Below are positions 37,946 to 51,575 of a DNA stretch of 55,033 nt, in pieces. The DNA is from an uncultured Actinomycetota bacterium (lineage in GTDB: Bacteria > Actinomycetota > Nitriliruptoria > Euzebyales > Egibacteraceae). The first letter of the stretch is position 1. Each line of letters starts with the position of its first letter. The position numbers and the translations under genes were made by a program. The notes under the pieces are model-generated. The model was not told the DNA's origin. It saw only the letters and a program-made list of their open reading frames with translations, and ran no database searches. The stretch spans positions 1-55,033 of the forward strand of contig CAZVUW010000009.1 in NCBI GenBank assembly GCA_964629825.1, in the 5' to 3' direction.

Positions 37946-38067
37946 CCCGTGTCAGACTCCTCCACGACGGCATACCGGCGAGCGAGCCGCGTGAATCCCG
38001 GTGGCGCCTGAGAATGCACTGCTATGCTCCGCGCGCCGTTCACGCAGCGTTAACCAAGGAGTCGCAG

Positions 38068-38223
38068 ATGCTACTCGGTTACCTTGATCCCGGATCAGGC
38101 AGCATCATCGTTCAAGCTGCCTTGGGCGGAGCGGCAGGCCTAGCGGTGCTGTGGAAGCGCGTCCGCTACCGCGGTCGACCTACACCCGACCAGGAGTCAA
38201 AGCAGGAGACCCCCGAGGAGTAG
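38068..38223 (+). CDS. Small membrane protein (51 aa; MLLGYLDPGSGSIIVQAALGG...)
   Basis: AAGGAG (38056-38061) lies 6 nt before ATG 38068. It has one hydrophobic helix and then a charged tail, and sits just upstream of the kinase-like/methyltransferase gene. Confidence 0.5.
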   Translation: MLLGYLDPGSGSIIVQAALGGAAGLAVLWKRVRYRGRPTPDQESKQETPEE

Positions 38224-38247: not shown

Positions 38248-39645
38248 ATGACATCGGGCGTGGCAACCGGCTCCTTTCGCGATCCTGCGAGTCGGGTTCT
38301 CCTGGACGGCACGAGGGTTCTTCGTGTGCTCTCCCGCGAGGGCTACGAGGACTGGCTGGCGCTGAAGGATTCGCGGCTGCTTGCCGCCGCGCAGTCTGCG
38401 GGGACCCTCGTCGCAACCACCGACGCCTCCATCCCTGACGCTGCTCCGCGGGGGGATTGGGTCCACGCGCTCGAGCATGAGGCGATCCCCTTCATCTCGT
38501 ACCCCTACGAGTGGCCCTTCAGCATGCTGAAGGACGCAGCCCTGCTGCAGCTGGATCTCCTGCAGTCCGCCTTGGAGGAGGATCTGATCCTCAAGGACGC
38601 CAGCCCCTACAACGTCCAGTGGCGGGGTGCACGGCCGGTCTTCATCGACATCGGCTCGTTCGAGCGTCTGCGAGCGGGTGAGCCCTGGGCCGGTTACCGC
38701 CAGTTCTGCTCCCTGTTCCTCTTCCCGCTGATGCTGCGCGCGTACAAGGGGGTCCCGTACAGGACCTGGCTCCGCGGTGATCTGGAGGGGATATCGCCGC
38801 AGGAGATGCGCAGCCTCATGAGCCGGCGGGATCTGCTGCGCCCTGGAGTGGCGCTGCACGTGGCTCTGCAGGCCAAGGCCGATGCGCGCTACTCCGCGGG
38901 TGACGAGAACGTCCGCGAGCAGGTCCGCGCGGCGGGCTTCAGCAAGGACCTGATCCTGGCCAACGCGCGGAGGTTGCGGAAGCTCGTCGACTCCCTGAGC
39001 TGGCGCGCCGCGAGCTCGGAGTGGTCCGAGTACGCCACCGGCTGCGCCCACGTCGAGGGCGACCGCAACGTGAAGGAGAGGTTCGTCCGCCAAGTCCTGG
39101 CCACTCGCCGATGGCCGCTGGTCTGGGATCTCGGCGCCAACGACGGCTACTACTCCAGGCTTGCCGCCTCGCACGCAGACGCGGTGCTGGCGATCGATGG
39201 GGATGAGCTGGTGCTCGACCGCCTCTATCGCAGCTTGTCCGGCGAGGCCAAGGATCGGATCACGCCATTGGTGATCGACCTGGCCAACCCCTCGCCCGCG
39301 CAGGGCTGGGCCGGCCGGGAGCGTATGACCCTCGAGCAGCGAGGCCGCCCAGCCCTGACGCTCATGTTGGCGGTCATCCATCACCTTTCGATTGGACGCA
39401 ACATCCCGGTGGCCGACGTCGTGCGCTGGCTCGCCGAGCTCGGCGGTGAGGTGGTGCTGGAGTTTCCGCAGCCGGACGATCCGATGGTGCTCCGCCTGCG
39501 TCGCAACAAGCGCGACGAGGAGATCCATCCCGACTACAGCGAGCGTGCCCTGCGCGGTCTCCTCGCTGAGCACTTCGACATCCAGGCCGAGGAACGAACC
39601 TCTTCCGGCCACCGCCTGCTGCTGCACCTCACGCCGCGCTCCTGA
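38248..39645 (+). CDS. Fusion of an N-terminal protein-kinase-like fold domain and a C-terminal class I SAM-dependent methyltransferase
   Basis: The N-terminal part carries YPYEWPFSMLKDAALLQLDLL, LKDASPYNV (D-x4-N catalytic-loop-like) and VFIDIGSFE (DFG-like). The C-terminal part carries LVWDLGANDGYYS (SAM motif I, FkbM-like) and AIDGD. Confidence 0.65.
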   Translation: MTSGVATGSFRDPASRVLLDGTRVLRVLSREGYEDWLALKDSRLLAAAQSAGTLVATTDASIPDAAPRGDWVHALEHEAIPFISYPYEWPFSMLKDAALLQLDLLQSALEEDLILKDASPYNVQWRGARPVFIDIGSFERLRAGEPWAGYRQFCSLFLFPLMLRAYKGVPYRTWLRGDLEGISPQEMRSLMSRRDLLRPGVALHVALQAKADARYSAGDENVREQVRAAGFSKDLILANARRLRKLVDSLSWRAASSEWSEYATGCAHVEGDRNVKERFVRQVLATRRWPLVWDLGANDGYYSRLAASHADAVLAIDGDELVLDRLYRSLSGEAKDRITPLVIDLANPSPAQGWAGRERMTLEQRGRPALTLMLAVIHHLSIGRNIPVADVVRWLAELGGEVVLEFPQPDDPMVLRLRRNKRDEEIHPDYSERALRGLLAEHFDIQAEERTSSGHRLLLHLTPRS

Positions 39646-39704
39646 ACCCCGGGCGGCACCGCGCGGAAGGCCGATCGGCAGCCCCCGGCTGAGCTCCGCG
39701 ATGG

Positions 39705-39742
39705 TTGGACGGTTGGCCCGGCATCTCGGGCCAACCGTCCAA
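39705..39742. repeat. Hairpin repeat copy C (TTGGACGGTTGGCCCG GCATCT CGGGCCAACCGTCCAA)
   Basis: Perfect 16-bp stem with the same GCATCT loop as copies A and B. The two stem positions that differ from copy A are changed on both arms. It lies 60 nt after the stop at 39645 and is followed by a duplicated CCGTCCAA and GCGTC. Confidence 0.85.
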
Positions 39743-39915
39743 CCGTCCAAGCGTCGAACCGTCCTCAAAACGACCAGGCGGTCTTGAAGGGGCACCCCGA
39801 CCGTGTAGGTTGCGCGTGCTCGCCTACGCGGAGGCGGGCTGCAGTAGCGGGCTGTAAGGACGGCGGGGGACGACAGACGGGCCTCGCCCTTGCACGGAGG
39901 CTCAAGTTGCCCAGG

Positions 39916-42900
39916 ATGGTCGCGCGCAGCACCCGTTCCCTGTCCCTGCTCCTCAGCCTACTCATGGTGAGCGTGCTGGTCGACCCGAGCCTGGCGGCGA
40001 CGGGGGAACGGGGGCGGACCTACACCACCGACGCGGACTTCGACGAAGGCTCGTCCGTCAACGTCGTCACCAGCGTCCCCGATCAGCTCCAGCTCGACGA
40101 CGAGGTGCGGGCGTTCGACTTCCTGTGGGTCGCGGTCTCGACCAAGGGCACGATCGTCAAGATCGACACCCGCACAGGCGAGGTGCTCGGCGAGTACCGC
40201 ACCGCCCCGCAGGGGCAGCCGACGGACCCGTCGCGCACGACCGTGGACAAGAACGGCAGCGTCTGGGCGACCAACCGGGCGGGCAACAGCGTCGTGCACG
40301 TGGGGCTGGTCGAGAACGGCCAGTGCGTCGACCGCAACGGCAACGGCGTCATCGACACCTCCACGGGTCTGGGCGACGTGCGCGCCTGGGACAACGCCGG
40401 CGGGGCGAACACGAACGGGGGCGTCTCGACCGCGCTGGACGAGTGCCTCCTCCACTACGTCCGGGTCTCCTCGTCAGGCACCCGGCACGTGTCTGTCACC
40501 GCCGACAACGACGTCTGGGTCAGCGGCACGGGCGGACGCCACTTTGATCTGATCGACGGCGCCAGCGGGGAGATCGTCCGCCGCGAGCAGTCGGTCGGCT
40601 ATGGCGGCTACGGCGGGCTCATCGACCCGAGCGGGGTCATCTGGTCGTCTCGGCCGCTGCTGCGCTGGGACACGGCCAACCCGCTGACCGGTCCCAACGG
40701 CGGGAACTGGCGCGGCTACTCGCATGACAGCTATGGCCTGTGCATCGACCCCGAGGGCAACGTCTGGAACACCGAGTACGGCAGCCGCATCCACAAGTTC
40801 GCGCCCGACGGCACGCTGATCGGCACCTACAACCACGGCGGCTCGCTGGCTCAGGGCTGCGTGGCCGACCGCGACGGCCACATCTGGGTCGCCCACTCCC
40901 TCAGCGGCAACACGGTCGGCCACCTGCGCAACGACGGCACCCACCTGGGCAACGTGACCGTCGGCAGCGGGCCGACCGGCGTCGCCGTCGACGGTGCCGG
41001 CAAGATCTGGGCCACGAACTACAGCAGCCGCACCGTCTCCCGGATCGACCCGGACGCCGGCCCGATCGGCACGGACGGCCAGACCCGGGTCGGCGCCGTC
41101 GACTTCACCAGCGTCGACCTGGGCGGCAACCTCTACAACTACAGCGACATGACCGGCAGCACGCTGGCCGGCGCGCCCGACACCGGCACCTGGTCGGTCG
41201 TCTACGACAGCGGTGTGGACGCGGCGCAGTGGGGCCGTGTCGCCTGGACCGCCCAGGTCCCGGGCGACGGATCGCTGACGGTGACCGCGGCCAGCAGCGA
41301 GAACGGCAGCACCTTCTCCGCGCCGGTCGACGCCACCAGCGGCGGCCTCATCGACGTGCCCGACGGGCGCTACCTGCGCGTCACCGTGTCCTTCAAGCGC
41401 TCCAGCGACGGCGACAGCCCGGTCCTCAACGACCTGACCGTCCGCACCGGCACGGCCCCGCTCGAGTGCGAGACCCAGCCGGGCGGCATCGCACCCTCCG
41501 ACGTCGCCTTCGTGCTCGACGAGTCCGGCTCGATGTCCTCGAACGACCCGCAGCGCATCCGCGTCAGCGCCAGCACGGCCTTCGTCGACCGCTTCGTGGA
41601 GGGCGACCGCGCCGCCGTCATCGGCTTCGAGTCCAGCGCACGGGTCATCCTCGGCCTGTCCTCGGACGTCGACGCGATCAAGGCGGCCCTCAACCAGACC
41701 CGCGCATCCGGCGGCACCGACATCTCCAGCGGCGTCCGCGCGGGCCTGGACGAGCTCGCCAAGGATGCCCAGCCGGGCCGCCCCCAGTTCCTGCTGCTCC
41801 TGTCCGACGGCGCCGGCAGCTACAGCCACACCCTGACCGACCGCGCCGCCGCCGAGGGCGTGACCATCTACACCGTCGGCCTGGGCCCGTCCGTGCCCGA
41901 GGCGCTGCTCACGGAGATCGCCGAGCGCACCGGCGGCCGCTACTTCCCGGCGGCCCGGGCCGACGAGCTGCCGGACCTGTTCCAGGAGATCCGGGACGAG
42001 ACGGAGATCATCCTGTGCGGCGGCCCGACCGCCGAGGCCGGCGGGCCCTACGCGGTGCCGGAGGGCGGCGCCGTGATCCTCTTCGGCTCGGCCGACCCGG
42101 GCGACGACACGCGCCCGCTGACCTTCGCCTGGGATCTCGACAGCGACGGCGACTTCGAGACCGACGGCCCGCTCGCCCGCTTCGACGCGACCGACCTCGA
42201 CGGACCCGCCGAGGTCGAGGTCGCGCTCCAGGTCTGCGACGCCGACGAGCTCTGCGACGTCGACACCGCCACGGTCGAGGTTCGCAACGTGCGGCCCGAG
42301 GTCGATGCCGGACCCGATCTCGTCGTCACGGTGGGCGACACCGCGCTGCTCGACGGGCGCTTCAGCGACCCTGCCGGGGACGACGACGCCCCCTACGAGA
42401 CGATCTGGACCCTCGACGGCGAGGAGACCGCCGGCACCGCCGACCACGGCGACCCCGTCCGCCGCAGCGTCTCCTTCGACAGCCCGCAGAGCCATCTGGC
42501 CGAGGTGACGGTCACCGACGCCGACGGGGCGACCGGCCGCGACACCGCGCGGGTGAGCGCCGTGGCCATCGATCCGGACTGCTCCGGTGCCGGACCGACC
42601 ATCGCGCAGCTGTGGCCACCGAACCACAAGCTCCACAACGTTGCGATCACCGGCGTCGAGGCGCCGGACGGTGCGGACGTCGCCATCGTCATCACCGGCA
42701 TCCGCCAGGACGAGCCCGTCAACAGCACCGGCGACGGGAACACCGCGCCGGACGCCTTCGGCGTGGGCACCTCGACCGCCAGCCTGCGCGCCGAGCGCGC
42801 CGGTCCGCAGGACAGCCGCTTCTATCACATCTTCTACGAGGCCCGGACGTCCGAGGGCGGCATGTGCGCCGGCTCGGTCAGCGTGATGGTGCCGCACGAC

Positions 42901-45900
42901 CGCTCCCCCAACGCGGTCCACGTCGACGGCGGTCCCATCTACGACTCCACCGCTGGCAGCGACCCCGAACCCGGCACGCCGGTCGCGCTGGACGGCCACC
43001 ACCGGGTCACCAACGGCGCGACCCTGACCGTCGACGCGCCCGGCGTGCTCGCCCCGCACCTCACCCCGGACTCGGAGGACGTCGTCGCCGAGCTGGTCGA
43101 GGGGCCCGATGCGGGCGAGCTCGACCTGCGCCCGGACGGCTCGTTCACCTACACCGCCCCCGACGCGCCGGGCGATGTGCGCTTCACCTACCGCGCCCGC
43201 TCGGGCGACCGGGTCTCGGCGACGGGCACGGTGACCATCCGGGTGACCGCCGCCACCGCGGCCCTGCACGCACCCGACCGCGAGCTGTGGACCAGCGAGG
43301 ACACGCCCGTCAGCGCGACCCTCACGGCCCGCGGCAGCGGCGCGGAGGACGCGGTGTTCGCCATCGTCGACGGCCCGGCCTCGGGGACGGTGGAGCTCGA
43401 CGGAGACGTCCTCACCTACAAGCCCGCGCGCGACTTCACCGGCGGGGACGAGCTCACCTACTCGGCGACGTCCGGGGGCGTCCAGTCCGTCGGAACCGTC
43501 CGTATGACGGTGCTGGCCTCCAACGACACCCCGGTCGCCGAGACCGTCGCGGCCGCCGTCCCCGAGGACGGCACGGCGCTGATCGACGTCCTCTCGGCGG
43601 CCTCCGACGCCGATGGCGACGCCCTCGAGGTCGTGGAGGTCACCGCCCCGGCCCACGGCACCGCTGAGGTCGTCGACGGGCAGATCCGCTACGAGCCCGA
43701 GGCCGACTACAACGGCCCCGACACCTTCCGCTACCGCGTGCAGGATCCCGACGGCGCCTTCGCCGCGGCCGCCGTGCTGGTCGATGTGACCGAGGAGAAC
43801 GACCCGCCGCTGGCCGCCGACCTCGACTACTCGACCTCCTGGGACGAAGCCCTGTCGATCCCGGTTGCCGAGGTCGTCGCAGCCGGCCGCCCGGGTCCGG
43901 CCGACGAGGAGGGCCAGGCGCTCACCCTGACCACCGTCACGGCGACCGCCGACACCAACGGGAGGGTGACCCTCGACGGCGACGTCATCACCTACACACC
44001 GGACAGCGACTTCAGCGGCCGCGCGAGCTTCCGCTACGAGCTCTGCGACGACGGCACGAGCGCCGGCGAGCCCGACCCGCGCTGCGCGCACGGCACGATC
44101 ACCGTCGACGTCGTCCGGACCAACCGTCCACCGGTCGCCCATGACGCCGCGGTGACAACGGCGGAGGACACCCCCGTCGAGATCACCCTGCGCGCCACCG
44201 ACGCCAACGACGACCCGCTGACCTATCGGATCGTCACGGGTCCTGCCCACGGGAACCTCACCGGCACGCCGCCGACGCTCACCTACACCCCCGCGACCGG
44301 GTTCAGCGGCACGGACACCTTCACGTTCGCCGCCCACGACGGGCAGGCCGAGAGCTCCCCGGCGACGGTCACCATCACCGTGACCGAGGTGAACTCGCCA
44401 CCGGTGCCCGCCCCCGACCACTTCGCGATCGACGCCGGTGAGATCCTCACCGTCCCTGCCGCCGACCTCACCGCCAACGACGTGCCAGGCCCGCCACATG
44501 AGGCGCACCAGAGCCTCACCGTCACGCGGCTGATCGCGACCTCGGACACGTTCGGCGCTTTGTCTCTGGCCGACGGTGTCGTGACCTACACGCCCGAGCC
44601 CGGCTACAGCGGCACGGCGAGCTTCCGCTACGAGGTCTGCGACGACGGCACCACCGCCGGTCAGCCCGACCCGCTGTGCGCCGAGGGCACCGTCACGGTG
44701 GACGTCGCCGTCATCAACACCCCGCCGACGGCGGCCCCCGTCGTGGCAAGCACCGACGAGGACACGCCGGTCGTGATCACCCTGACCGGCCGCGATGACG
44801 ACGGCGACGCGCTGACCTTCGCGATCGTCGAGGGGCCGCAGAACGGCGCCCTCGGAGCGCTTTCGGCGGTGATCTGCGAGCAGGACGGGAGCGCCTCCGT
44901 CTGCTCGGCCACCGTCACCTACACCCCCGACCCGGACGTTGCGACGATCGACGTCTTCCGCTTCGCGGTTCGGGACGGCCGCGCCACCGTGGAGGCGACC
45001 GCCTCGGTCTACATCGAGCCGGTCAACGACGCCCCGACCGCCGACGCCACCCCGAACCCGCTGGTCCTGGCCGAGGACACCCAGGCCGGCGTGACCCTCA
45101 CGGGGGCGGACATCGAGACGCCACCGGCGGCCCTGGTGGTCGAGATCACGGCGCTCCCCGACCGCGGAGAGCTGCGCCACGACGGGCGCGCCCTCGAGGT
45201 CGGCGACCGCATCACCGGCGTGCCCGTTGACGTCTCCTACGTACCCGACCCGGACGCGAACGGCTCCGACGGGTTCACCTTCCGCGTGCACGACGACGGA
45301 CAGGCCCTCAGCCCGCCGCTGCACGCCGAGCAGGCCGTGACCGTCAGCATCACCCCGGTGAACGACCCGCCGGTCCCCGGCACGTTCAGGGCCTCAGCCA
45401 CCCAGGGGCAGCCGCTGGAGATCCCGGCCGCCGACGTCGCCGCCACCGCCTCCCCCGGCCCCGCCGACGAGGCCGGGCAGGCCCTGGTGATCACGAACGT
45501 GCGCGCCGTTGACGACACGCACGGCACCGTGGTGCTCGCGGGCGGCGTCATCACCTACACGCCCGACGGCGACCACTCGGGCCCGGCGTCGTTCGCGTAC
45601 ACGATCTGCGACGACGGCACAACCGGCGGCCAGCCCGATCCCCGGTGCGCCGAGGGCGTCGTTTCCCTGACCGTCGCCGAAGAGGGCCCCGACCTCGCAC
45701 CGCCGATCGTCGAGGTCGAGGACGTGACCGTGACCGCGGGCACCACCGCGATCGTGACGGTGACCGCCACCGACAACCGCGGCGTCGCGTCCCTGGAGCT
45801 GACCGTGGACGGCACGTCCGTGCCGCTCGACGACGCCGGCCGCGCCCAGGTCCCAACCTCTTCGCCCGGTGTTCAGCAGCTCGTCGCGACCGCGACGGAC

Positions 45901-48900
45901 GCCGCCGGCAACGTCGGGACGGCGATGGGCAAGGTCGTGGCCCTCGGCTCGGATGACGGCGTCGCGCCGGCGGCTGCGATCACCGCGCCGATCGACGGCA
46001 AGGAGCTGAGCGAGCCGACAACGGTCGTCGGCACGGCGACCGACGCCCGCCTCAGCCACTGGCAGCTGACGGCGACGCCGGTGTCGCCGGCCGACTCCGC
46101 TCCGATCGTGCTCGCGGAGGGCACCGAGCCCATCGCTGACGGCGCCCTCGGCACCTTCGATCCGACGACCCTCACCGGCGGGCAGTACCGGCTCCGCCTT
46201 GACGTCTGGGACCTCGGTGGACGGGGAGCCCGCGCCGAGGTCGTGGTCATCGCCGACAACGAGACGCCCTACGGGCAGTTCTCGATGACATTCACGGACG
46301 CGGTCCTGCCCCTCGGCAACTTCCCCGTCACGGTGCAGCGCACCTACTCGTCGGGCAGCCGGGCGATCTCGGGCGACTTCGGCTACGGCTGGCGGCTGGG
46401 CCTCCAGTCGCTGAAGCTGGAGGTCGACCGCGAGCCGGGCGACGGCTGGCGGGCGGAGAACCGCGGCACGATCATCCCGAACTGGGTGCTGATCCCGACG
46501 AAGCCGCACACCGTCACGATCGTCGACGACAACCGCGACTCGATCATCTTCGAGTTCACGCCGACGTTCATCAGCCCGATCCTCCCGAACTACGCGACCG
46601 CCGCGTTCACGGAGCGGACCAACAAGGGCGCGACGCTGACGCCGCTGGACGCCACCGACCTGTTCTTCAGCGGCGACCAGCTCTACGGCTTCGACACCAT
46701 CGAGACCTACCACCCGCAGGCCTATCAGCTGACGCTCCGCGACGGCCGCCGGTACACCTTCCACCTGGAGCGCGGCCTGACGGAGTACCGCGACGCGAAC
46801 GGTGAGCGGCTGAGCATCACCGCGTCGGGGATCACGTCATCGCGCGGGCCCGGCGTCACCTTCGCCCGCGACAGCGAGGGCCGCATCACCAGCGTGACCA
46901 CGCCGGGCGGGCTCGTGACCCGCTACGGCTACGACGCCGCCGGCAACCTCGCCGAGGTCATCGACCCCGAGGGCAACCGGACCACCTTCGCCTACGACCG
47001 CCGGCACTTGCTGATCGGCGTGGTTGACGCGCTCGGTCGGGTGCCGATGCGCACCGAGTTCGATGAGAACGGCCGCATCGTCGCCATCGTCGACTCGAGC
47101 GGGCGCCGCACCGAGCTCTCCTCCGATCCCGACGCTCGAGAGGAGACGATCTCCGACCGGCTCGGGAACGTGACCGTCCGCAGCTACGACGAGGACGGCA
47201 ACGTCCTCAAGGAGATCCACCCGGACGGGGCGGTCGAGACCTTCACCTACGACGCCGACGGCAACCAGACCTCGCGCACCGACGGGCTGGGCCGCACCAC
47301 CACCTACACCTACGACCAGCGCGGCAACCGCACCAGCCAGACCGATGAGCTGGGCAACACGACCACCTACACCTACGACGAGGACGACAACCTCATCGCG
47401 ATGGTCGACCCGCTCGACGAGGTGACCACGTTCACCTACGACGGCAACGGCAACCGGACGTCGGTCACCTACCCCGACGGCACCACCGAGAGCTGGACGT
47501 ACGACAGCCGCGGCAACCTCCTCACCGAGACCGACGCAACCGGCGCCGTCACCCGCCACACCTACGACTCGCAGGGCCGGCGCATCTCGACCGTCCTGCC
47601 CGGAGGGGCCGAGCGCGTCACGACCTACGACGCCGACGGGCGCCGCGCGTCCCAGACCGGCCCGAGCGGCACCGAGACCTTCGGCTATGACGGCCTCGGC
47701 AACATCACGACCCACCACGATCCGCTCGGCGGCCAGACCCTGAACACCTACGACCCGCTGGGCCGGCGCACCGAGCAGGTCGACCCGCTCGGCGGCATCC
47801 GGACCAAGACCTACGACGAGCACGGCAACGTCGTGGCCGAGACCGACGCGACCGGCGCCGTCACCCGTCACACCTACGACGCCGAGGGCCGCAAGCTCTC
47901 GACCACGGACCCTGACGGCACCGTCCACTCCTTCACCTACGACCGCCGCGGCCGCGAGATCGCCCGCAGAGTCGACGGCGTGATCGTCGAGGAGCGGACC
48001 TACGACGCGGCCGGCCAGATCACCTCCATCACCGACGCCGCCGGTGCTGTCACCCGCTATGAGTACGACCGCGCCGGGCGGCTCGTGCGGACGATCTTCC
48101 CCGACGGGTCGGCAGAGGAGCTGACCCTGGACGGCGCCGGCAACGTGCTGGAGCGCACGACGCCGGACGGCACGACCACGTTCACCTACGACGAGCGGGG
48201 CCGGATGCGCTCGCGGACGGTGCCCGGCCGCGGCACGACCACCTACGACTACGACGCCGACGGCCGTCTCAAGGAGGAGATCGGACCCGACGGCCGCAAG
48301 ACCACCTACACGTACGGCGCCGACCACCGGCTCGCCTCGGTCACCGACGGGCTCGGGGGCGTCACCACGTTCAGCTACGACGGCGACGGCCGGCTGACGT
48401 CCGTGACCGACCCGCTCGGTCGCACAACGACCTACCAGCACGACGCCCGGGGCCACCTCACGGAGCGCTCCGTCGAGGGTCAGGTGCTCGAGCGCTACAC
48501 CGCGGACGCGATGGGGCGGATCCTGACCCGCACCGACGCGGACGGCCGTGTGACCAGCTACGAGCACGACGGTGAGGGCCACCTCGTCGCCATCGACCAC
48601 GCCGACGGGCGCACGACCCGCATCGACTACACCGACGGGGGGCGACGGGACACGGTCACGGATGCCCGCGGCGTCACCTCCTACGGCTACGACACGGCCG
48701 GACGGCTCGTCCAGGTCACCGCGCCCGAAGGCACGGTGTCCTACGCCTACCGACCGGACGGCAACCTGGCCAGCCGGACCGACCCGGGCGGCACGACCGC
48801 TTACGAGTACGACGACCTCGGCCGGCTGACGGCCGTCGTCGACCCGTCCGGCGGTCGCTACACGATCGGCTACGACAGCGCCGGCCGACCCAGCACGCTC

Positions 48901-50505
48901 ACGTACCCGAACGGCGTGATCTCGACCACGACCTTCGACGACGCGGGAGCCGCCGCGAGCCGGACCATCACGGGCTCCGGTGGCCAGGTGCTCGCCTCCT
49001 TCGGCGTCACCCGCGACGCCGGCGGCCGCCTCACCGGGGTCGAGGAGACCGGTCCCGGCCTGGGCGCACCGCGCTCCCGCGCTTACGCCTACGACGCCGC
49101 GGGCCGCCTCACCGGCGCGACGGTCACCCGTGACGGCACGGTCGTCACCGACGAGAGCTACACGCTCGACGCCTTCGGCAACCGCACGGCGGTCACCTCA
49201 GGCGGTACCACCCAGACCGCGACGTTCGACGCCCTCGACCGCATCACGACGCTCGGGGACACGACCTACACCCACGACGCCTCAGGACGCCGCATCCGGG
49301 CCGAGGGCCCCGATGGCGCCACGTCCTACGCCTATGACAGCGATCACCGGCTGATCCGGGTCGGCAAGCCCGACGGCACTGTGGTCGAGCACGCCTACGA
49401 CGTCGACGGCAACCGCGTTGCCACCACGGTCGCAGGCCAGCGCACCGAGTACGTGCTGGACATCGCGGCCGAGCTGCCACAGGTCGCCGCCGAGACCGAC
49501 GGTCGGGGCACCGTCACCGCGACCTACGTCTACATCGCGGGCCGCCTCGTCGCCATGCGGCGCGGCGGGGTGACCACCTACGTCCACGATGACCACGGCG
49601 GCAACATCCGCCTGCTCACGGACGCCACCGGCGCGGTCACCGACACCTTCGACTACGGGCCCTTCGGGACGCTCGAGAGCCGCACCGGCACGACCCCGCT
49701 GCCGTACGGCTACCGCGGGCAGCGCTACGACGAGTCAACCGGGCTGTACTACCTGCACGCCCGCTACTACGACCCGGTCTCGGCCCGCTTCCTGAGCCCG
49801 GACCCGCACCCGGGTGTGCTGCGGCGGCCGGCGTCGTTCAACCGCTACCTGTACGCCAACGGCGATCCCGTGAACATGTGGGATCCCAACGGCCAGATGG
49901 GCCTCGCCGTGGCGGTGGGCGGCTTCCCCGTCCAGGCCACGCTCGCCGGCATATCCGTGCCGTCGCTGGTCGGGGTCCTCGCCACCGTCTACGTCCTGCT
50001 GCTCATCTCCGGGGTGGTCGGGCCGGCTCTGGTCAGCACCTCCGGCTTGACGATCGGCCAGACGATCGCCAACAGCCAGGCTGCGCAGCGCAGGCTGGAG
50101 CTCGAGTGGGAGAAGCTCGCCGCGGCCATCGCCGCCGCGTCGGCGGCCGCGGCCTGCGGTGTGCCGCTGTTCCACTACACGAGCTACATGGGCGCGCGGG
50201 GCATCTTGGCCGATCAGGCGATCTTCGCCACCCCGACGTTCCGCTCCCCGTGGGGCACGCACCCGTCCGGGGCGTACGCGACCACGATCTGGCCGATCGG
50301 CCCGACGACCCGCTCCCAGCTCCAGGATCTCTACAAGATGGGGGACCGCAACTGGGACGTCTCCTGGTACGTCATGCTGTGCCACAACCAGAACCCGACG
50401 TTCATCCCGTCCGGCTATGGCCAGGAGTGGTACGCGCCGGCGCCGCCGGGTTGGCCCGTGCCGGTGCGCGTGTGGACGATCGGACCGAACCTGATGCTCC
50501 CGTGA
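39916..50505 (+). CDS. Giant secreted RHS-repeat polymorphic toxin (signal peptide, NHL/Vgb-like propeller, vWA, PKD-like, nine cadherin/Ig-like repeats, RHS cage, variable C-terminal toxin)
   Basis: The Sec signal is MVARSTRSLSLLLSLLMVSVLVDPSLAA. Propeller blades show D.(D/N)G.(V/I)W motifs. The vWA MIDAS is DESGS at 41518-41532. Dozens of YD repeats (TYTYD..GN, YDA.GR) span 46279-49896. The RHS core is PYGYRGQRYDESTGLYYLHARYYDPVSARFLSPDP ... NMWDPNGQ. The start could be further upstream (track 39784), but ATG 39916 gives a clean signal peptide. Confidence 0.9.
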   Translation: MVARSTRSLSLLLSLLMVSVLVDPSLAATGERGRTYTTDADFDEGSSVNVVTSVPDQLQLDDEVRAFDFLWVAVSTKGTIVKIDTRTGEVLGEYRTAPQGQPTDPSRTTVDKNGSVWATNRAGNSVVHVGLVENGQCVDRNGNGVIDTSTGLGDVRAWDNAGGANTNGGVSTALDECLLHYVRVSSSGTRHVSVTADNDVWVSGTGGRHFDLIDGASGEIVRREQSVGYGGYGGLIDPSGVIWSSRPLLRWDTANPLTGPNGGNWRGYSHDSYGLCIDPEGNVWNTEYGSRIHKFAPDGTLIGTYNHGGSLAQGCVADRDGHIWVAHSLSGNTVGHLRNDGTHLGNVTVGSGPTGVAVDGAGKIWATNYSSRTVSRIDPDAGPIGTDGQTRVGAVDFTSVDLGGNLYNYSDMTGSTLAGAPDTGTWSVVYDSGVDAAQWGRVAWTAQVPGDGSLTVTAASSENGSTFSAPVDATSGGLIDVPDGRYLRVTVSFKRSSDGDSPVLNDLTVRTGTAPLECETQPGGIAPSDVAFVLDESGSMSSNDPQRIRVSASTAFVDRFVEGDRAAVIGFESSARVILGLSSDVDAIKAALNQTRASGGTDISSGVRAGLDELAKDAQPGRPQFLLLLSDGAGSYSHTLTDRAAAEGVTIYTVGLGPSVPEALLTEIAERTGGRYFPAARADELPDLFQEIRDETEIILCGGPTAEAGGPYAVPEGGAVILFGSADPGDDTRPLTFAWDLDSDGDFETDGPLARFDATDLDGPAEVEVALQVCDADELCDVDTATVEVRNVRPEVDAGPDLVVTVGDTALLDGRFSDPAGDDDAPYETIWTLDGEETAGTADHGDPVRRSVSFDSPQSHLAEVTVTDADGATGRDTARVSAVAIDPDCSGAGPTIAQLWPPNHKLHNVAITGVEAPDGADVAIVITGIRQDEPVNSTGDGNTAPDAFGVGTSTASLRAERAGPQDSRFYHIFYEARTSEGGMCAGSVSVMVPHDRSPNAVHVDGGPIYDSTAGSDPEPGTPVALDGHHRVTNGATLTVDAPGVLAPHLTPDSEDVVAELVEGPDAGELDLRPDGSFTYTAPDAPGDVRFTYRARSGDRVSATGTVTIRVTAATAALHAPDRELWTSEDTPVSATLTARGSGAEDAVFAIVDGPASGTVELDGDVLTYKPARDFTGGDELTYSATSGGVQSVGTVRMTVLASNDTPVAETVAAAVPEDGTALIDVLSAASDADGDALEVVEVTAPAHGTAEVVDGQIRYEPEADYNGPDTFRYRVQDPDGAFAAAAVLVDVTEENDPPLAADLDYSTSWDEALSIPVAEVVAAGRPGPADEEGQALTLTTVTATADTNGRVTLDGDVITYTPDSDFSGRASFRYELCDDGTSAGEPDPRCAHGTITVDVVRTNRPPVAHDAAVTTAEDTPVEITLRATDANDDPLTYRIVTGPAHGNLTGTPPTLTYTPATGFSGTDTFTFAAHDGQAESSPATVTITVTEVNSPPVPAPDHFAIDAGEILTVPAADLTANDVPGPPHEAHQSLTVTRLIATSDTFGALSLADGVVTYTPEPGYSGTASFRYEVCDDGTTAGQPDPLCAEGTVTVDVAVINTPPTAAPVVASTDEDTPVVITLTGRDDDGDALTFAIVEGPQNGALGALSAVICEQDGSASVCSATVTYTPDPDVATIDVFRFAVRDGRATVEATASVYIEPVNDAPTADATPNPLVLAEDTQAGVTLTGADIETPPAALVVEITALPDRGELRHDGRALEVGDRITGVPVDVSYVPDPDANGSDGFTFRVHDDGQALSPPLHAEQAVTVSITPVNDPPVPGTFRASATQGQPLEIPAADVAATASPGPADEAGQALVITNVRAVDDTHGTVVLAGGVITYTPDGDHSGPASFAYTICDDGTTGGQPDPRCAEGVVSLTVAEEGPDLAPPIVEVEDVTVTAGTTAIVTVTATDNRGVASLELTVDGTSVPLDDAGRAQVPTSSPGVQQLVATATDAAGNVGTAMGKVVALGSDDGVAPAAAITAPIDGKELSEPTTVVGTATDARLSHWQLTATPVSPADSAPIVLAEGTEPIADGALGTFDPTTLTGGQYRLRLDVWDLGGRGARAEVVVIADNETPYGQFSMTFTDAVLPLGNFPVTVQRTYSSGSRAISGDFGYGWRLGLQSLKLEVDREPGDGWRAENRGTIIPNWVLIPTKPHTVTIVDDNRDSIIFEFTPTFISPILPNYATAAFTERTNKGATLTPLDATDLFFSGDQLYGFDTIETYHPQAYQLTLRDGRRYTFHLERGLTEYRDANGERLSITASGITSSRGPGVTFARDSEGRITSVTTPGGLVTRYGYDAAGNLAEVIDPEGNRTTFAYDRRHLLIGVVDALGRVPMRTEFDENGRIVAIVDSSGRRTELSSDPDAREETISDRLGNVTVRSYDEDGNVLKEIHPDGAVETFTYDADGNQTSRTDGLGRTTTYTYDQRGNRTSQTDELGNTTTYTYDEDDNLIAMVDPLDEVTTFTYDGNGNRTSVTYPDGTTESWTYDSRGNLLTETDATGAVTRHTYDSQGRRISTVLPGGAERVTTYDADGRRASQTGPSGTETFGYDGLGNITTHHDPLGGQTLNTYDPLGRRTEQVDPLGGIRTKTYDEHGNVVAETDATGAVTRHTYDAEGRKLSTTDPDGTVHSFTYDRRGREIARRVDGVIVEERTYDAAGQITSITDAAGAVTRYEYDRAGRLVRTIFPDGSAEELTLDGAGNVLERTTPDGTTTFTYDERGRMRSRTVPGRGTTTYDYDADGRLKEEIGPDGRKTTYTYGADHRLASVTDGLGGVTTFSYDGDGRLTSVTDPLGRTTTYQHDARGHLTERSVEGQVLERYTADAMGRILTRTDADGRVTSYEHDGEGHLVAIDHADGRTTRIDYTDGGRRDTVTDARGVTSYGYDTAGRLVQVTAPEGTVSYAYRPDGNLASRTDPGGTTAYEYDDLGRLTAVVDPSGGRYTIGYDSAGRPSTLTYPNGVISTTTFDDAGAAASRTITGSGGQVLASFGVTRDAGGRLTGVEETGPGLGAPRSRAYAYDAAGRLTGATVTRDGTVVTDESYTLDAFGNRTAVTSGGTTQTATFDALDRITTLGDTTYTHDASGRRIRAEGPDGATSYAYDSDHRLIRVGKPDGTVVEHAYDVDGNRVATTVAGQRTEYVLDIAAELPQVAAETDGRGTVTATYVYIAGRLVAMRRGGVTTYVHDDHGGNIRLLTDATGAVTDTFDYGPFGTLESRTGTTPLPYGYRGQRYDESTGLYYLHARYYDPVSARFLSPDPHPGVLRRPASFNRYLYANGDPVNMWDPNGQMGLAVAVGGFPVQATLAGISVPSLVGVLATVYVLLLISGVVGPALVSTSGLTIGQTIANSQAAQRRLELEWEKLAAAIAAASAAAACGVPLFHYTSYMGARGILADQAIFATPTFRSPWGTHPSGAYATTIWPIGPTTRSQLQDLYKMGDRNWDVSWYVMLCHNQNPTFIPSGYGQEWYAPAPPGWPVPVRVWTIGPNLMLP

Positions 50506-51575
50506 GGCTCGAGCGCTCGGGCTCGCTCCCCCGCATCGGGGGGGTCACCGGTGCGCTGTCCGTCGGCGAGCACGTCGTCGTGACGTGCTCGCGCGGGACC
50601 GAGCGCTGGGCCGTCGGCCTGCGCCGCGACGGCGCCGGCTGGGCGCAGGCCTGGTCGCACGACCTGGTCGGCGACGCCTCCTACCCGTGGAGGGGCCACG
50701 GCATCTGGCTGGACCGCGGCGGGGCCGTCGGCCTGCCCGGCGGCCGGGTGGCCCTGGTCGGTGGCCGTGAGCGCCTGGTCGTGACCGCGGACGGCCGGGT
50801 CGAGACCCGTGCCGAGGGCGTGGCCGCGAGCGCTCCGCCCGCGCTGGTCGACGGCCTGCTGCTCATCCCGGAGCGCGCCGAGCTCGCCGCCTACGACCCG
50901 GACGACCTGACCGAGCGCTGGCGGCGCCCCACCCCGTGGGCCGCGCTGGTCTGCACGTCAGCGGTCGGCGACGTGGTGGGGATCAGCCACCACGACCGCG
51001 ACCCGGCCGAGAGCCACCTGTGGTGGTACGGGGCCGGCGCCACCGCCGCGCTGGGCTTCGAGGCGCTGTGGCATGCGCCGCTGCCCGTGCCGCTGCCCCT
51101 CGACGGGGCCGCGGTCGCCGCGGGACGCTCGGCCGCCGTAGTGGCCGAGGGCAGCTCGGCGGCGACGGTGGTGACGGCCGTCGGACCGGAGGGCCAGGAG
51201 CTCTGGCGGATTCCACGCGGCGCGCCGGCCTTCCCCCAGGCGCCGCGTCCGGCGCTGACGGGGCAGCTCCTTCCCGGCGACGGAGTGGTCTGGTGCGCCG
51301 TCGCCGAGCCGGCAGTGCTGGCCATCGACCCGGTGGACGGCGCCGTGCGCGCCGACGTGCCCCTGCCGGCCGACGCCACGGCGATGGCGCTGACCGGCGA
51401 CGCGCTGTGGGTGGGCACCGCCGACGGCGAGGTGCTCCAGATCGAGGACGCCGAGGTCGTCGCCCGCGCCGTCTTCGACCCCGGCGGTGCCGAGCGGCTG
51501 TCCCTGCTGCTACCGCTCGGCCCGGGGCTGCTCGGGATCGGCTCGCTCGGCTCCCTTGTCGAGATCAGCGCCTGA
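50502..51575 (+). CDS. Cytoplasmic beta-propeller-like (PQQ/BamB-type repeat) protein; candidate cognate immunity protein
   Basis: GTG 50502 overlaps the toxin stop (GTGA). There is no signal peptide. Repeated strand-turn motifs are LVVTADGRVE, LAAYDPDDLTERWRR, GQELWRIP, VLAIDPVDGAVRADV and ALWVGTADGEVLQI. I trimmed the 565-aa track ORF. Confidence 0.65.
   Translation: MRLERSGSLPRIGGVTGALSVGEHVVVTCSRGTERWAVGLRRDGAGWAQAWSHDLVGDASYPWRGHGIWLDRGGAVGLPGGRVALVGGRERLVVTADGRVETRAEGVAASAPPALVDGLLLIPERAELAAYDPDDLTERWRRPTPWAALVCTSAVGDVVGISHHDRDPAESHLWWYGAGATAALGFEALWHAPLPVPLPLDGAAVAAGRSAAVVAEGSSAATVVTAVGPEGQELWRIPRGAPAFPQAPRPALTGQLLPGDGVVWCAVAEPAVLAIDPVDGAVRADVPLPADATAMALTGDALWVGTADGEVLQIEDAEVVARAVFDPGGAERLSLLLPLGPGLLGIGSLGSLVEISA

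Follow-up and report, generated by a model that had tools for sequence, protein, structure and literature searches.

WapA, a protein of about 2,300 aa with N-terminal wall-binding repeats and tRNase toxins, is a Sec-dependent YD-shell toxin that carries adhesion domains at its N terminus. Other Sec-dependent YD-shell toxins with N-terminal adhesion domains have been published as bacterial teneurin-like proteins, the C-terminal toxins of which include ADP-ribosyltransferases (ARTs), and how Sec-exported RHS or teneurin-like toxins reach and enter their targets is an openly stated gap (PMC13018210). The combination of a β-propeller with RHS repeats was already listed among Sec-dependent polymorphic toxins in the 2012 survey of Zhang et al. 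(PMC3482391). Here, we have analyzed a gene for a 3,529-aa protein lying in a 55,033-nt stretch of DNA (hereafter the window) from an uncultured Actinomycetota bacterium of the Egibacteraceae (contig CAZVUW010000009.1 of assembly GCA_964629825.1). We consider it likely that this protein is a Sec-exported RHS polymorphic toxin used for bacterial antagonism, independent of a dedicated secretion system. It is best filed as a variant within the Sec-dependent RHS polymorphic toxins and as a member of a recurrent propeller-RHS group. Its parts, and the gene that follows it, are these:

39907-39996, plus strand: start region and Sec-type signal peptide, assigned by inspection
39916-50505, plus strand: toxin open reading frame (ORF), ATG to TGA, 3,529 aa in a single uninterrupted frame
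40018-41166, plus strand: β-propeller of the NHL/SGL/Vgb-lyase clan (aa 35-417), first part of a conserved secreted family
41167-41466, plus strand: β-sandwich, starting just past the YNYSDMTG motif that closes the propeller part
41467-42018, plus strand: inserted vWA domain with a complete metal-ion-dependent adhesion site (MIDAS), from a profile match and inspection
42019-42567, plus strand: two PKD domains (PKD_4, two stretches), part of the insertion
42568-42969, plus strand: LWPPNHK module, C-terminal domain of the conserved propeller family
42970-45681, plus strand: stalk of nine tandem-95/Big_9 cadherin-like repeats (NF012211, 274 bits, cut-off 90)
45682-46260, plus strand: two Big_7-type Ig domains, conserved along with the cage in giant relatives
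46261-49896, plus strand: DUF6531 plug, then an RHS/YD shell with the RHS core at its end, from profile matches
49897-50154, plus strand: pre-toxin segment, in which about 45 hydrophobic aa precede a charged helix
50155-50505, plus strand: C-terminal toxin domain (aa 3414-3529, about 115 aa), a probable ART
50502-51575, plus strand: immunity gene, 357 aa, a divergent PQQ-type β-propeller without a signal peptide

Profile searches identify an RHS cage. The RHS_repeat profile matches 20 stretches (E 6e-143) and YD_repeat_2x matches 17, and the canonical RHS core claimed in an initial annotation of this DNA is confirmed by Rhs_assc_core (TIGR03696), which covers aa 3247-3327 with 71.5 bits, above its curated cut-off of 32.5. 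The PxxxxDPxG motif is present as P3318-VNMW-D3323-PNG (P3318 to G3326, nt 49867-49893), with an upstream DP at D3296. By its sequence, the cage presumably cleaves itself at this motif, at D3323, which would leave the last ~200 residues enclosed. The shell is devoid of cysteine, and all other cysteines of the protein are paired inside single domains, a pattern that fits an extracellular protein. Among solved structures, the shell is best matched (E 6e-63 to 6e-53) by Rhs effectors of type VI secretion systems (T6SSs), namely RhsP (8h8a, E 6e-63), Tre23 (7pq5), and RhsA (7q97), followed by a Bacillus teneurin-like protein (9pt5) and teneurins; PF25023 (TEN_YD-shell) scores 77.1 bits, above a cut-off of 50. 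The protein has the shell, the core motif, and a putative encapsulated ART toxin (as in Tre23 and TreTu) in common with these effectors. However, the effectors possess PAAR, prePAAR, or VgrG-binding N termini and are fired by a T6SS, and none of these features is found in the window protein. Similarly, the SpvB domain, the TcdB mid/N domains, the shell-inserted propeller, and the TcA partner that characterize the BC subunit of Tc toxins were not found in the protein or the window.

Bacterial teneurin-like proteins (BiTLP, 9pt5/9ifo; PMC13018210) are, like the window protein, Sec-dependent, with a variable adhesion N terminus, a YD shell, polymorphic toxins, and immunity genes. What defines them is a contiguous superfold of FN-plug, NHL propeller, and YD shell, usually with TTR and TIP domains. 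In contrast, only ~115 aa of the window protein lie between the end of DUF6531 (near aa 2170) and the first RHS-like repeats (near aa 2287), and the propeller is found ~1,700 aa upstream. This propeller belongs to a different family from that of the teneurin-like proteins, with no propeller match to 9pt5, whose match covers the shell only. There are no TTR or TIP domains among the Pfam matches of the protein. Membership of the teneurin-like proteins was therefore rejected, since the plug-to-repeat gap leaves no room for a propeller beside the shell.

What the cage would enclose is a hydrophobic leader followed by a toxin. The leader, with a maximum Kyte-Doolittle value of 2.4 over 19 aa, is kept in length and character among relatives. 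In most RHS-linked relatives of the toxin, the toxin domain begins 68-88 residues past DPxG, with a hydrophobic stretch in the gap, and eight of the nine giant propeller-RHS proteins with a recognizable core (described below) also begin their unrelated cargo with a hydrophobic stretch. We infer that the hydrophobic segment and the charged helix aid membrane crossing or entry. The toxin domain itself has five close homologues among 5.8 billion proteins. A profile search extended the family to 144 representative clusters, in all of which the domain is C-terminal, including in proteins of 2,600-5,000 residues, and RHS repeats are present in 17 of the 44 relatives scanned.

Several lines of evidence point to an ART of the RolB/6b and Tox-ART-HYD1 group, an assignment that we consider probable, with moderate confidence. 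Four relatives recovered by the toxin profile (E 1e-24 to 1e-29) exceed the RolB_RolC cut-off of 23 (P0130, 34.8 bits; P0136, 30.9; P0129, 25.9; P0132, 24.2), one near relative scores 21 bits for Tox-ART-HYD1, and in a wider scan 2 of 44 relatives match Tox-ART-HYD1, with a best E value of 1.9e-18. In an AlphaFold2 model of the domain, predicted local distance difference test (pLDDT) values are 81-93 except for one loop block at 65, and the top Foldseek matches are ART folds: Agrobacterium 6b (3aq3; probability 0.97, E 0.08), the Salmonella Rhs1 toxin TreTu, CC0527, DarT, Arr-2, and PARPs. The order of the strands in this model puts H3420, Y3454, and D3481, the candidate catalytic residues, at the H-Y-[D/E] positions of ART enzymes, and H3420 and Y3454 are invariant. 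The domain thus resembles Tox-ART-HYD1 (PF15633) and RolB/RolC/6b (PF02027) through the matches of its relatives, the 6b fold, and the H...Y...[D/E] pattern; like HYD1, the family is carried by RHS proteins that come with dedicated immunity genes. The partner here is, however, a PQQ-type propeller and not the Imm-My6CBD of HYD1.

A number of results count against an ART assignment. The domain of the window protein has no Pfam match of its own (E <= 1), neither to PF15633 nor to PF02027, and neither the domain nor a 36-sequence toxin profile finds a useful sequence match in the PDB. The model was built from just six sequences, its Foldseek matches are weak (E >= 0.08) with TM scores of 0.39-0.49 on the target, and D3481 is common but not invariant among toxin relatives. 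Two cysteines, C3414 and C3489, are invariant in six close homologues and missing from many wider relatives. They prompted us to consider a link to thioredoxin-dependent ARTs via TreX (PMC11606950), an idea abandoned because TreX falls in another ART clade (R-S-E).

The same toxin domain is also found on two short proteins of ~300 aa (P0124 and P0125), which consist of an apparent N-terminal signal and one small domain in addition to the toxin, without an RHS cage. This short form, too, occurs paired with a propeller immunity partner (L085). Since the domain exists on both caged and short cage-free proteins, it would have more than one mode of delivery.

The gene downstream had been proposed as the partner of the toxin, which is borne out both by its position and by its conservation. 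Its GTG start codon at 50502 overlaps the toxin stop codon by 4 nt (GTGA). The 357-aa product has no Pfam match and no useful PDB sequence match, and a word-index search with it found only itself; its family was instead recovered via the gene neighbors of toxin homologues. On two unrelated contigs, a toxin homologue is overlapped at its 3' end by a PQQ_2 gene, of 367 residues in one case and 373 in the other, and the 357-aa product is 29-31% identical to the proteins that these genes encode (E 7e-17 and 7e-16):

L084, 570-1670: PQQ_2-type immunity relative, overlapping its toxin gene by 4 nt
L085, 1028-2146: PQQ_2-type immunity relative, overlapping its toxin gene by 4 nt

On this comparative evidence, the toxin and the PQQ-type propeller are a conserved, predicted toxin-immunity pair. 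Zhang et al. reported β-propellers as not yet seen among immunity proteins in their 2012 survey (PMC3482391).

As for export, the signal peptide has arginine residues in its n-region, an h-region that reads SLSLLLSLLMVSVLV, and a cleavage site S-L-A/A; inspection revealed neither a lipobox nor a twin-arginine motif. No PAAR, VgrG, LXG, WXG, SpvB, or two-partner secretion (TPS) domain was found in the protein (Pfam, E <= 0.01), and no T6SS, type VII secretion system (T7SS), Tc, or TPS genes are present among the 29 window ORFs scanned. The absence of T6SS, T7SS, and Tc partner genes from the window, noted by the initial annotation, therefore stands. The combination of a Sec-type signal with no targeting domain and no secretion genes in the window makes Sec-dependent, WapA-like export the best reading, as had been suggested. 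Like WapA (Bacillus subtilis; Streptococcus suis WapA, PMC12704120), the window protein is predicted to combine a Sec signal and an RHS cage with a polymorphic toxin at the C terminus and an immunity gene next to it, and to need neither a T6SS nor a T7SS; both have Gram-positive hosts. Unlike WapA, the window protein is without a wall-binding domain, its arm of 1,900 aa is built from propeller, vWA, PKD, and tandem-95 domains, and it carries a probable ART toxin. It would work in the manner of both WapA and the teneurin-like proteins, but by its predicted domain content it lacks one defining feature of each of the two nearest classes: the wall-binding domain of WapA and the NHL propeller between plug and shell of the teneurin-like proteins.

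While the initial annotation read the N-terminal region as a series of separate modules, our homologue searches, run by protein segment, reveal that it is largely one conserved protein. Queried with residues 1-1020, they returned 1,423 significant proteins, most of them ~650-700 aa long and secreted, that are nameless, hypothetical, or annotated just as "streptogramin lyase." Stand-alone members are 55-73% identical to the window protein over aa ~2-540 and ~55% over aa 881-1020. They are found in Myxococcota, Acidobacteriota, Chloroflexota, Bacillota, Gammaproteobacteria, Patescibacteria, and Planctomycetota, with weaker archaeal relatives (~30% identity) and a protein of the diatom Discostella (P0050) that is 50% identical to the N-terminal query and present as a duplicated copy. 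It is unusual for a secreted protein to which no function is assigned to be conserved at this level across phyla (P0003-P0120; loci L007, L013-L019, and others). The plan of the family is fixed, with the propeller, the YNYSDMTG motif, a β-sandwich that follows the propeller in every member, the LWPPNHK domain ~121 residues past YNYSDMTG, and the C terminus ~118 residues further on. In the window protein, the insertion of a vWA domain and two PKD domains expands the YNYSDMTG-LWPPNHK spacing from the canonical 121 aa to 492 aa. Family alignments and this spacing thus indicate that the LWPPNHK module, previously listed as separate and unassignable, is the C-terminal domain of the propeller/sandwich family, and that the N-terminal 1,018 aa are a complete copy of a widespread, predicted secreted family, split by the vWA and PKD block.

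The propeller scores 47 bits for SGL (cut-off 26.3) and 26 bits for NHL (cut-off 20), matches the Pizza6 designer propellers (E 4e-12), and displays seven G-x-[IV]-W strand motifs; the blade count, like the signal peptide, rests on inspection only. In four metagenome-assembled genomes of Chloroflexia, Acidimicrobiia, and Actinomycetes (L067, L070, L071, and L072), the propeller is itself split, query residues ~9-302 and ~320-523 aligning ~850 aa apart, and in L046 the corresponding halves are ~160 aa apart. One inter-blade loop therefore accepts large insertions. The LWPPNHK module, which has no Pfam match, holds a conserved cysteine pair (C889/C984). It models as a cadherin/Rib/PKD-like β-sandwich (41 sequences, pLDDT 86.5), its structural likeness to Rib, cadherin EC, and PKD β-sandwiches being modest (E 2e-3 to 5e-2, TM 0.4-0.5).

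Profile searches recovered the propeller, vWA, and two PKD modules where the initial annotation had placed them, just as they had recovered the RHS core. The VWA profile matches aa 529-690 (E 6e-19), and the domain also matches the CLCA1 vWA and anthrax toxin receptor 2. Its MIDAS is intact: the DESGS motif provides D535-x-S-x-S539 (D535, S537, and S539; nt 41518-41532), and T601 and D631 complete the site, as judged by inspection. Two cysteines, C518 and C701, flank the vWA domain exactly and are both missing from P0001, the pattern expected of an inserted domain that would be stapled at its base. The two PKD domains are common to a family subgroup (P0001, P0008, and P0022), none of which has the vWA domain. 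The vWA insertion is in no other propeller-family member seen, nor did JGI metagenomes, scanned for the sandwich-vWA junction, yield a relative.

The arm continues with a stalk in which Big_9/tandem-95 profiles match nine stretches. The two Ig-like modules that follow are recognized by Big_7, and the count of nine ~95-aa repeats plus two further modules is thereby confirmed. A distinct subtype had been proposed for repeats 4, 6, and 9, and it is real: identity among these repeats, which have the cysteine pair, is 50-54%, compared with 24-42% in the remaining repeat pairs. The stalk is ~900 residues long and acidic, with a net charge of -105.

The joining of the propeller family to RHS cages is recurrent. 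The N-terminal query recovered 80 species-representative genomes, of which at least 11 encode the propeller-sandwich unit (64-73% identity) inside an RHS-cage ORF. These unannotated giants come from Myxococcus sp. RHSTA-1-4 (L001), Myxococcales (L009), Pyrinomonadaceae (L002-L006, L008, and L046), Acidobacteriota (L020), and Acetivibrio (L011); ten of the ORFs encode 2,550-4,012 residues, and that of Acetivibrio is partial (1,767 residues). Their cages, aligned from the Ig domains before the cage up to the core, are 32-37% identical to that of the window protein, the alignment to L001 beginning at aa 1944. Examples of their domain order are as follows:

Myxococcus sp. RHSTA-1-4 (L001), 4,012 aa: CARDB/Big, propeller, eleven PKD, RHS
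Pyrinomonadaceae (L003): PKD, propeller, Big_1, RHS
Acetivibrio (L011): SLH, propeller, PKD, cohesin, RHS
Myxococcales (L009): lipobox at the start

The C-terminal domains of the giants all differ, as would be expected of polymorphic toxins. What they have in common with the window protein is the propeller and sandwich, the pre-cage Ig domains, the plug, the shell, and polymorphic toxins that mostly have a hydrophobic start. In the giants, however, the propeller is internal, with 165 to ~1,100 aa between it and the called N terminus, whereas in the window protein it comes directly behind the signal peptide. The giants lack both the LWPPNHK motif and the vWA domain, they have PKD/K319L, Big_1, or cohesin domains in their stalks instead of tandem-95 repeats, some of them carry anchors (SLH or a lipobox), none of which was found in the window protein, and their toxins differ from that of the window. 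Particular to the window protein are therefore the position of the propeller after the signal peptide, the retention of the last domain of the family, the vWA insertion, and the tandem-95 stalk. The plan itself, in which a propeller and an Ig-type stalk are combined with an RHS cage, is widespread by these alignments, and we found no published description of it. The initial view that the architecture is undescribed consequently holds only in part: the vWA insertion and the tandem-95 stalk were not seen elsewhere, but the general plan of propeller, Ig/PKD stalk, and RHS occurs in at least 11 other species genomes, and adhesion-type Sec-dependent YD-shell toxins have been published.

In the mechanism that we propose, the first ~1,920 residues, comprising the family unit, its vWA/PKD insertion, and the tandem-95 stalk, would be a binding arm. 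After Sec export, the cage would be cut at D3323 with the cargo staying inside, and the propeller unit, the MIDAS vWA domain, and the acidic stalk would bind a component of the target-cell surface. The cargo would then be released, the hydrophobic leader helping its passage across the membrane, and the toxin would modify a cytoplasmic target with NAD. Producer and sibling cells would survive through the cytoplasmic PQQ-type propeller immunity protein, whose gene is translationally coupled. We also put forward, as a tentative idea held with low confidence, that the propeller-sandwich unit is a hitherto unrecognized cross-phylum module for targeting or entry. It would define a class of T6SS-free, Sec-exported RHS toxins in Myxococcota, Acidobacteriota, Bacillota, and the host of the window, the hydrophobic start of most of the cargo domains would take the toxin across the target membrane, and the window protein would be the most elaborate member, with the integrin-like vWA domain as a second, metal-dependent ligand site.

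Several points weigh against the proposal of a Sec-exported toxin that binds and attacks bacterial cells. The search for secretion genes covered the window, and a distant secretion system or accessory factor is possible elsewhere in the genome. None of our results indicates the target organism. No CWB2, SLH, LysM, or other wall-binding domain (Pfam), LPXTG motif, or lipobox was found in the window protein, although some relatives have SLH or a lipobox, so that retention on the surface and contact dependence are unsupported. The location "on the cell surface" given by the initial annotation is accordingly unproven; the protein may be released, or held just by its own binding domains. Finally, the propeller family could be an enzyme of the lactonase/lyase clan and not a binding module.

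This last point underlies a different explanation, that the propeller family acts as an enzyme (lactonase, lyase, or depolymerase) and opens a path through the target's capsule or wall polymers, in which case the protein would resemble a phage tail-spike joined to a toxin cage. Both a binding and an enzymatic role are possible for the family: its SGL/Vgb-lyase clan contains enzymes, and the 55-73% identity between members from different phyla suits an enzyme with a fixed substrate better than an adhesin. We nevertheless regard the enzymatic explanation as unlikely, since Vgb_lyase scores 44 bits, under the Pfam cut-off of 50, and no conserved neighbor genes that might hint at a substrate accompany the stand-alone propeller genes (39 loci).

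Alternatively, the protein could mainly be a teneurin-like surface adhesin or kin-recognition protein, its propeller/vWA/cadherin array attaching to kin, matrix, or host and the caged toxin being secondary. Adhesion-type domains, including a complete MIDAS, make up over half of the protein, its gene is located within a wall-glycopolymer gene cluster, and cell-cell communication has been raised as a possible role of teneurin-like proteins (PMC13018210). This is quite improbable in our view, as the RHS core is intact, the invariant toxin residues and the conserved, coupled immunity gene point to selection for a working toxin, and there is no anchor domain to keep an adhesin on the cell.

We also find it quite improbable that the toxin targets eukaryotic organisms (plants, fungi, protists, or invertebrates), in the manner of Tc toxins or Agrobacterium 6b/RolB, with the arm binding a eukaryotic surface. 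The nearest named relatives of the toxin, RolB/RolC/6b, do act within plant cells, vWA and cadherin-like domains often bind eukaryotic ligands, and the propeller family extends to a diatom. However, a cytoplasmic immunity protein is encoded beside this type of toxin in three unrelated contigs, which implies harm to bacterial cells, the toxin family occurs at the C terminus of classical polymorphic toxins, and HYD1-type ARTs have been assigned to within-species conflict (Zhang et al. 2012, PMC3482391).

We can practically dismiss an assembly chimera or pseudogene, for which the metagenomic source of the DNA and the absence of the exact 3,529-aa product from the protein collection (exact look-up) might speak, since three Logan assemblies from separate runs (L086, L087, and L088) match window positions 40502-51575 at 99.92-99.99% identity with 0 gaps, each with a 3,532-aa gene call, and GC at third codon positions is 0.94 across the stop-to-stop frame containing the ORF. 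The single ~10.6-kb ORF described initially is thereby confirmed, and a frameshift, sought in these assemblies, is excluded. The look-up miss is explained by the start codon: gene callers on the independent contigs use an in-frame TTG three codons upstream, at 39907, which gives 3,532 aa, and a GGAGG at 39897-39901 ends 5 nt before this TTG.

The following features flank the toxin and immunity genes:

~14900-37950: large wall or S-layer glycopolymer cluster with numerous GT2/GT4 glycosyltransferases, GT-D-like and WsaF-like enzymes, an ABC-2 permease and ATPase, and an LtaS-like sulfatase-domain protein
38014-38223, plus strand: 69-aa ORF with one hydrophobic stretch, also called on independent contigs just 5' of the methyltransferase-like gene
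38248-39645, plus strand: 465-aa protein with no Pfam match that reads as an S-adenosylmethionine-dependent methyltransferase
39700-39747, plus strand: inverted repeat (hairpin), 21-nt arms, 95% complementary, 6-nt loop
51603-53768, minus strand: Pel9A-like/DUF1565 β-helix protein with three CWB2 domains, in a convergent gene ending 28 nt past the immunity gene

The hairpin, made of GGTTGGAC-like units and accompanied by a second, overlapping 18-nt pair, lies in the 270-nt gap 3' of the methyltransferase-like gene and 5' of the toxin gene. It is probably the terminator of the former, so the toxin gene would have its own start region. No hairpin was found between the immunity gene and the CWB2 β-helix gene. 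Neither the 465-aa nor the 69-aa protein looks related to the toxin. The 29 other window ORFs scanned encode glycosyltransferases, ABC-2 transporters, the WsaF-like enzyme, the LtaS-like sulfatase-domain protein, a DrrA-type gene product, regulators, housekeeping proteins, and the CWB2 β-helix protein, and together with a GC content of 72% they point to a monoderm host that is probably an actinobacterium. Between ~22 and 39 kb, GC drops to 67-70%, compared with 72-77% on either side, which hints at horizontal acquisition of part of the glycopolymer cluster.

The class of protein to which the window toxin is assigned is in itself unsurprising; what would be of interest is the repeated capture of one extremely conserved propeller unit by RHS cages, the hydrophobic leaders on their cargo, and the propeller immunity protein. 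The locus offers two concrete candidates for how such toxins may enter target cells, namely, one strongly conserved propeller unit that is repeatedly joined to RHS cages in phyla far apart and a hydrophobic leader on the caged cargo, both of which are testable in a culturable relative, Myxococcus sp. RHSTA-1-4. It also adds a rare toxin family that is probably linked to the fold of the plant-oncogene proteins RolB/6b, and a β-propeller immunity protein, a class not yet seen in the 2012 survey (PMC3482391).

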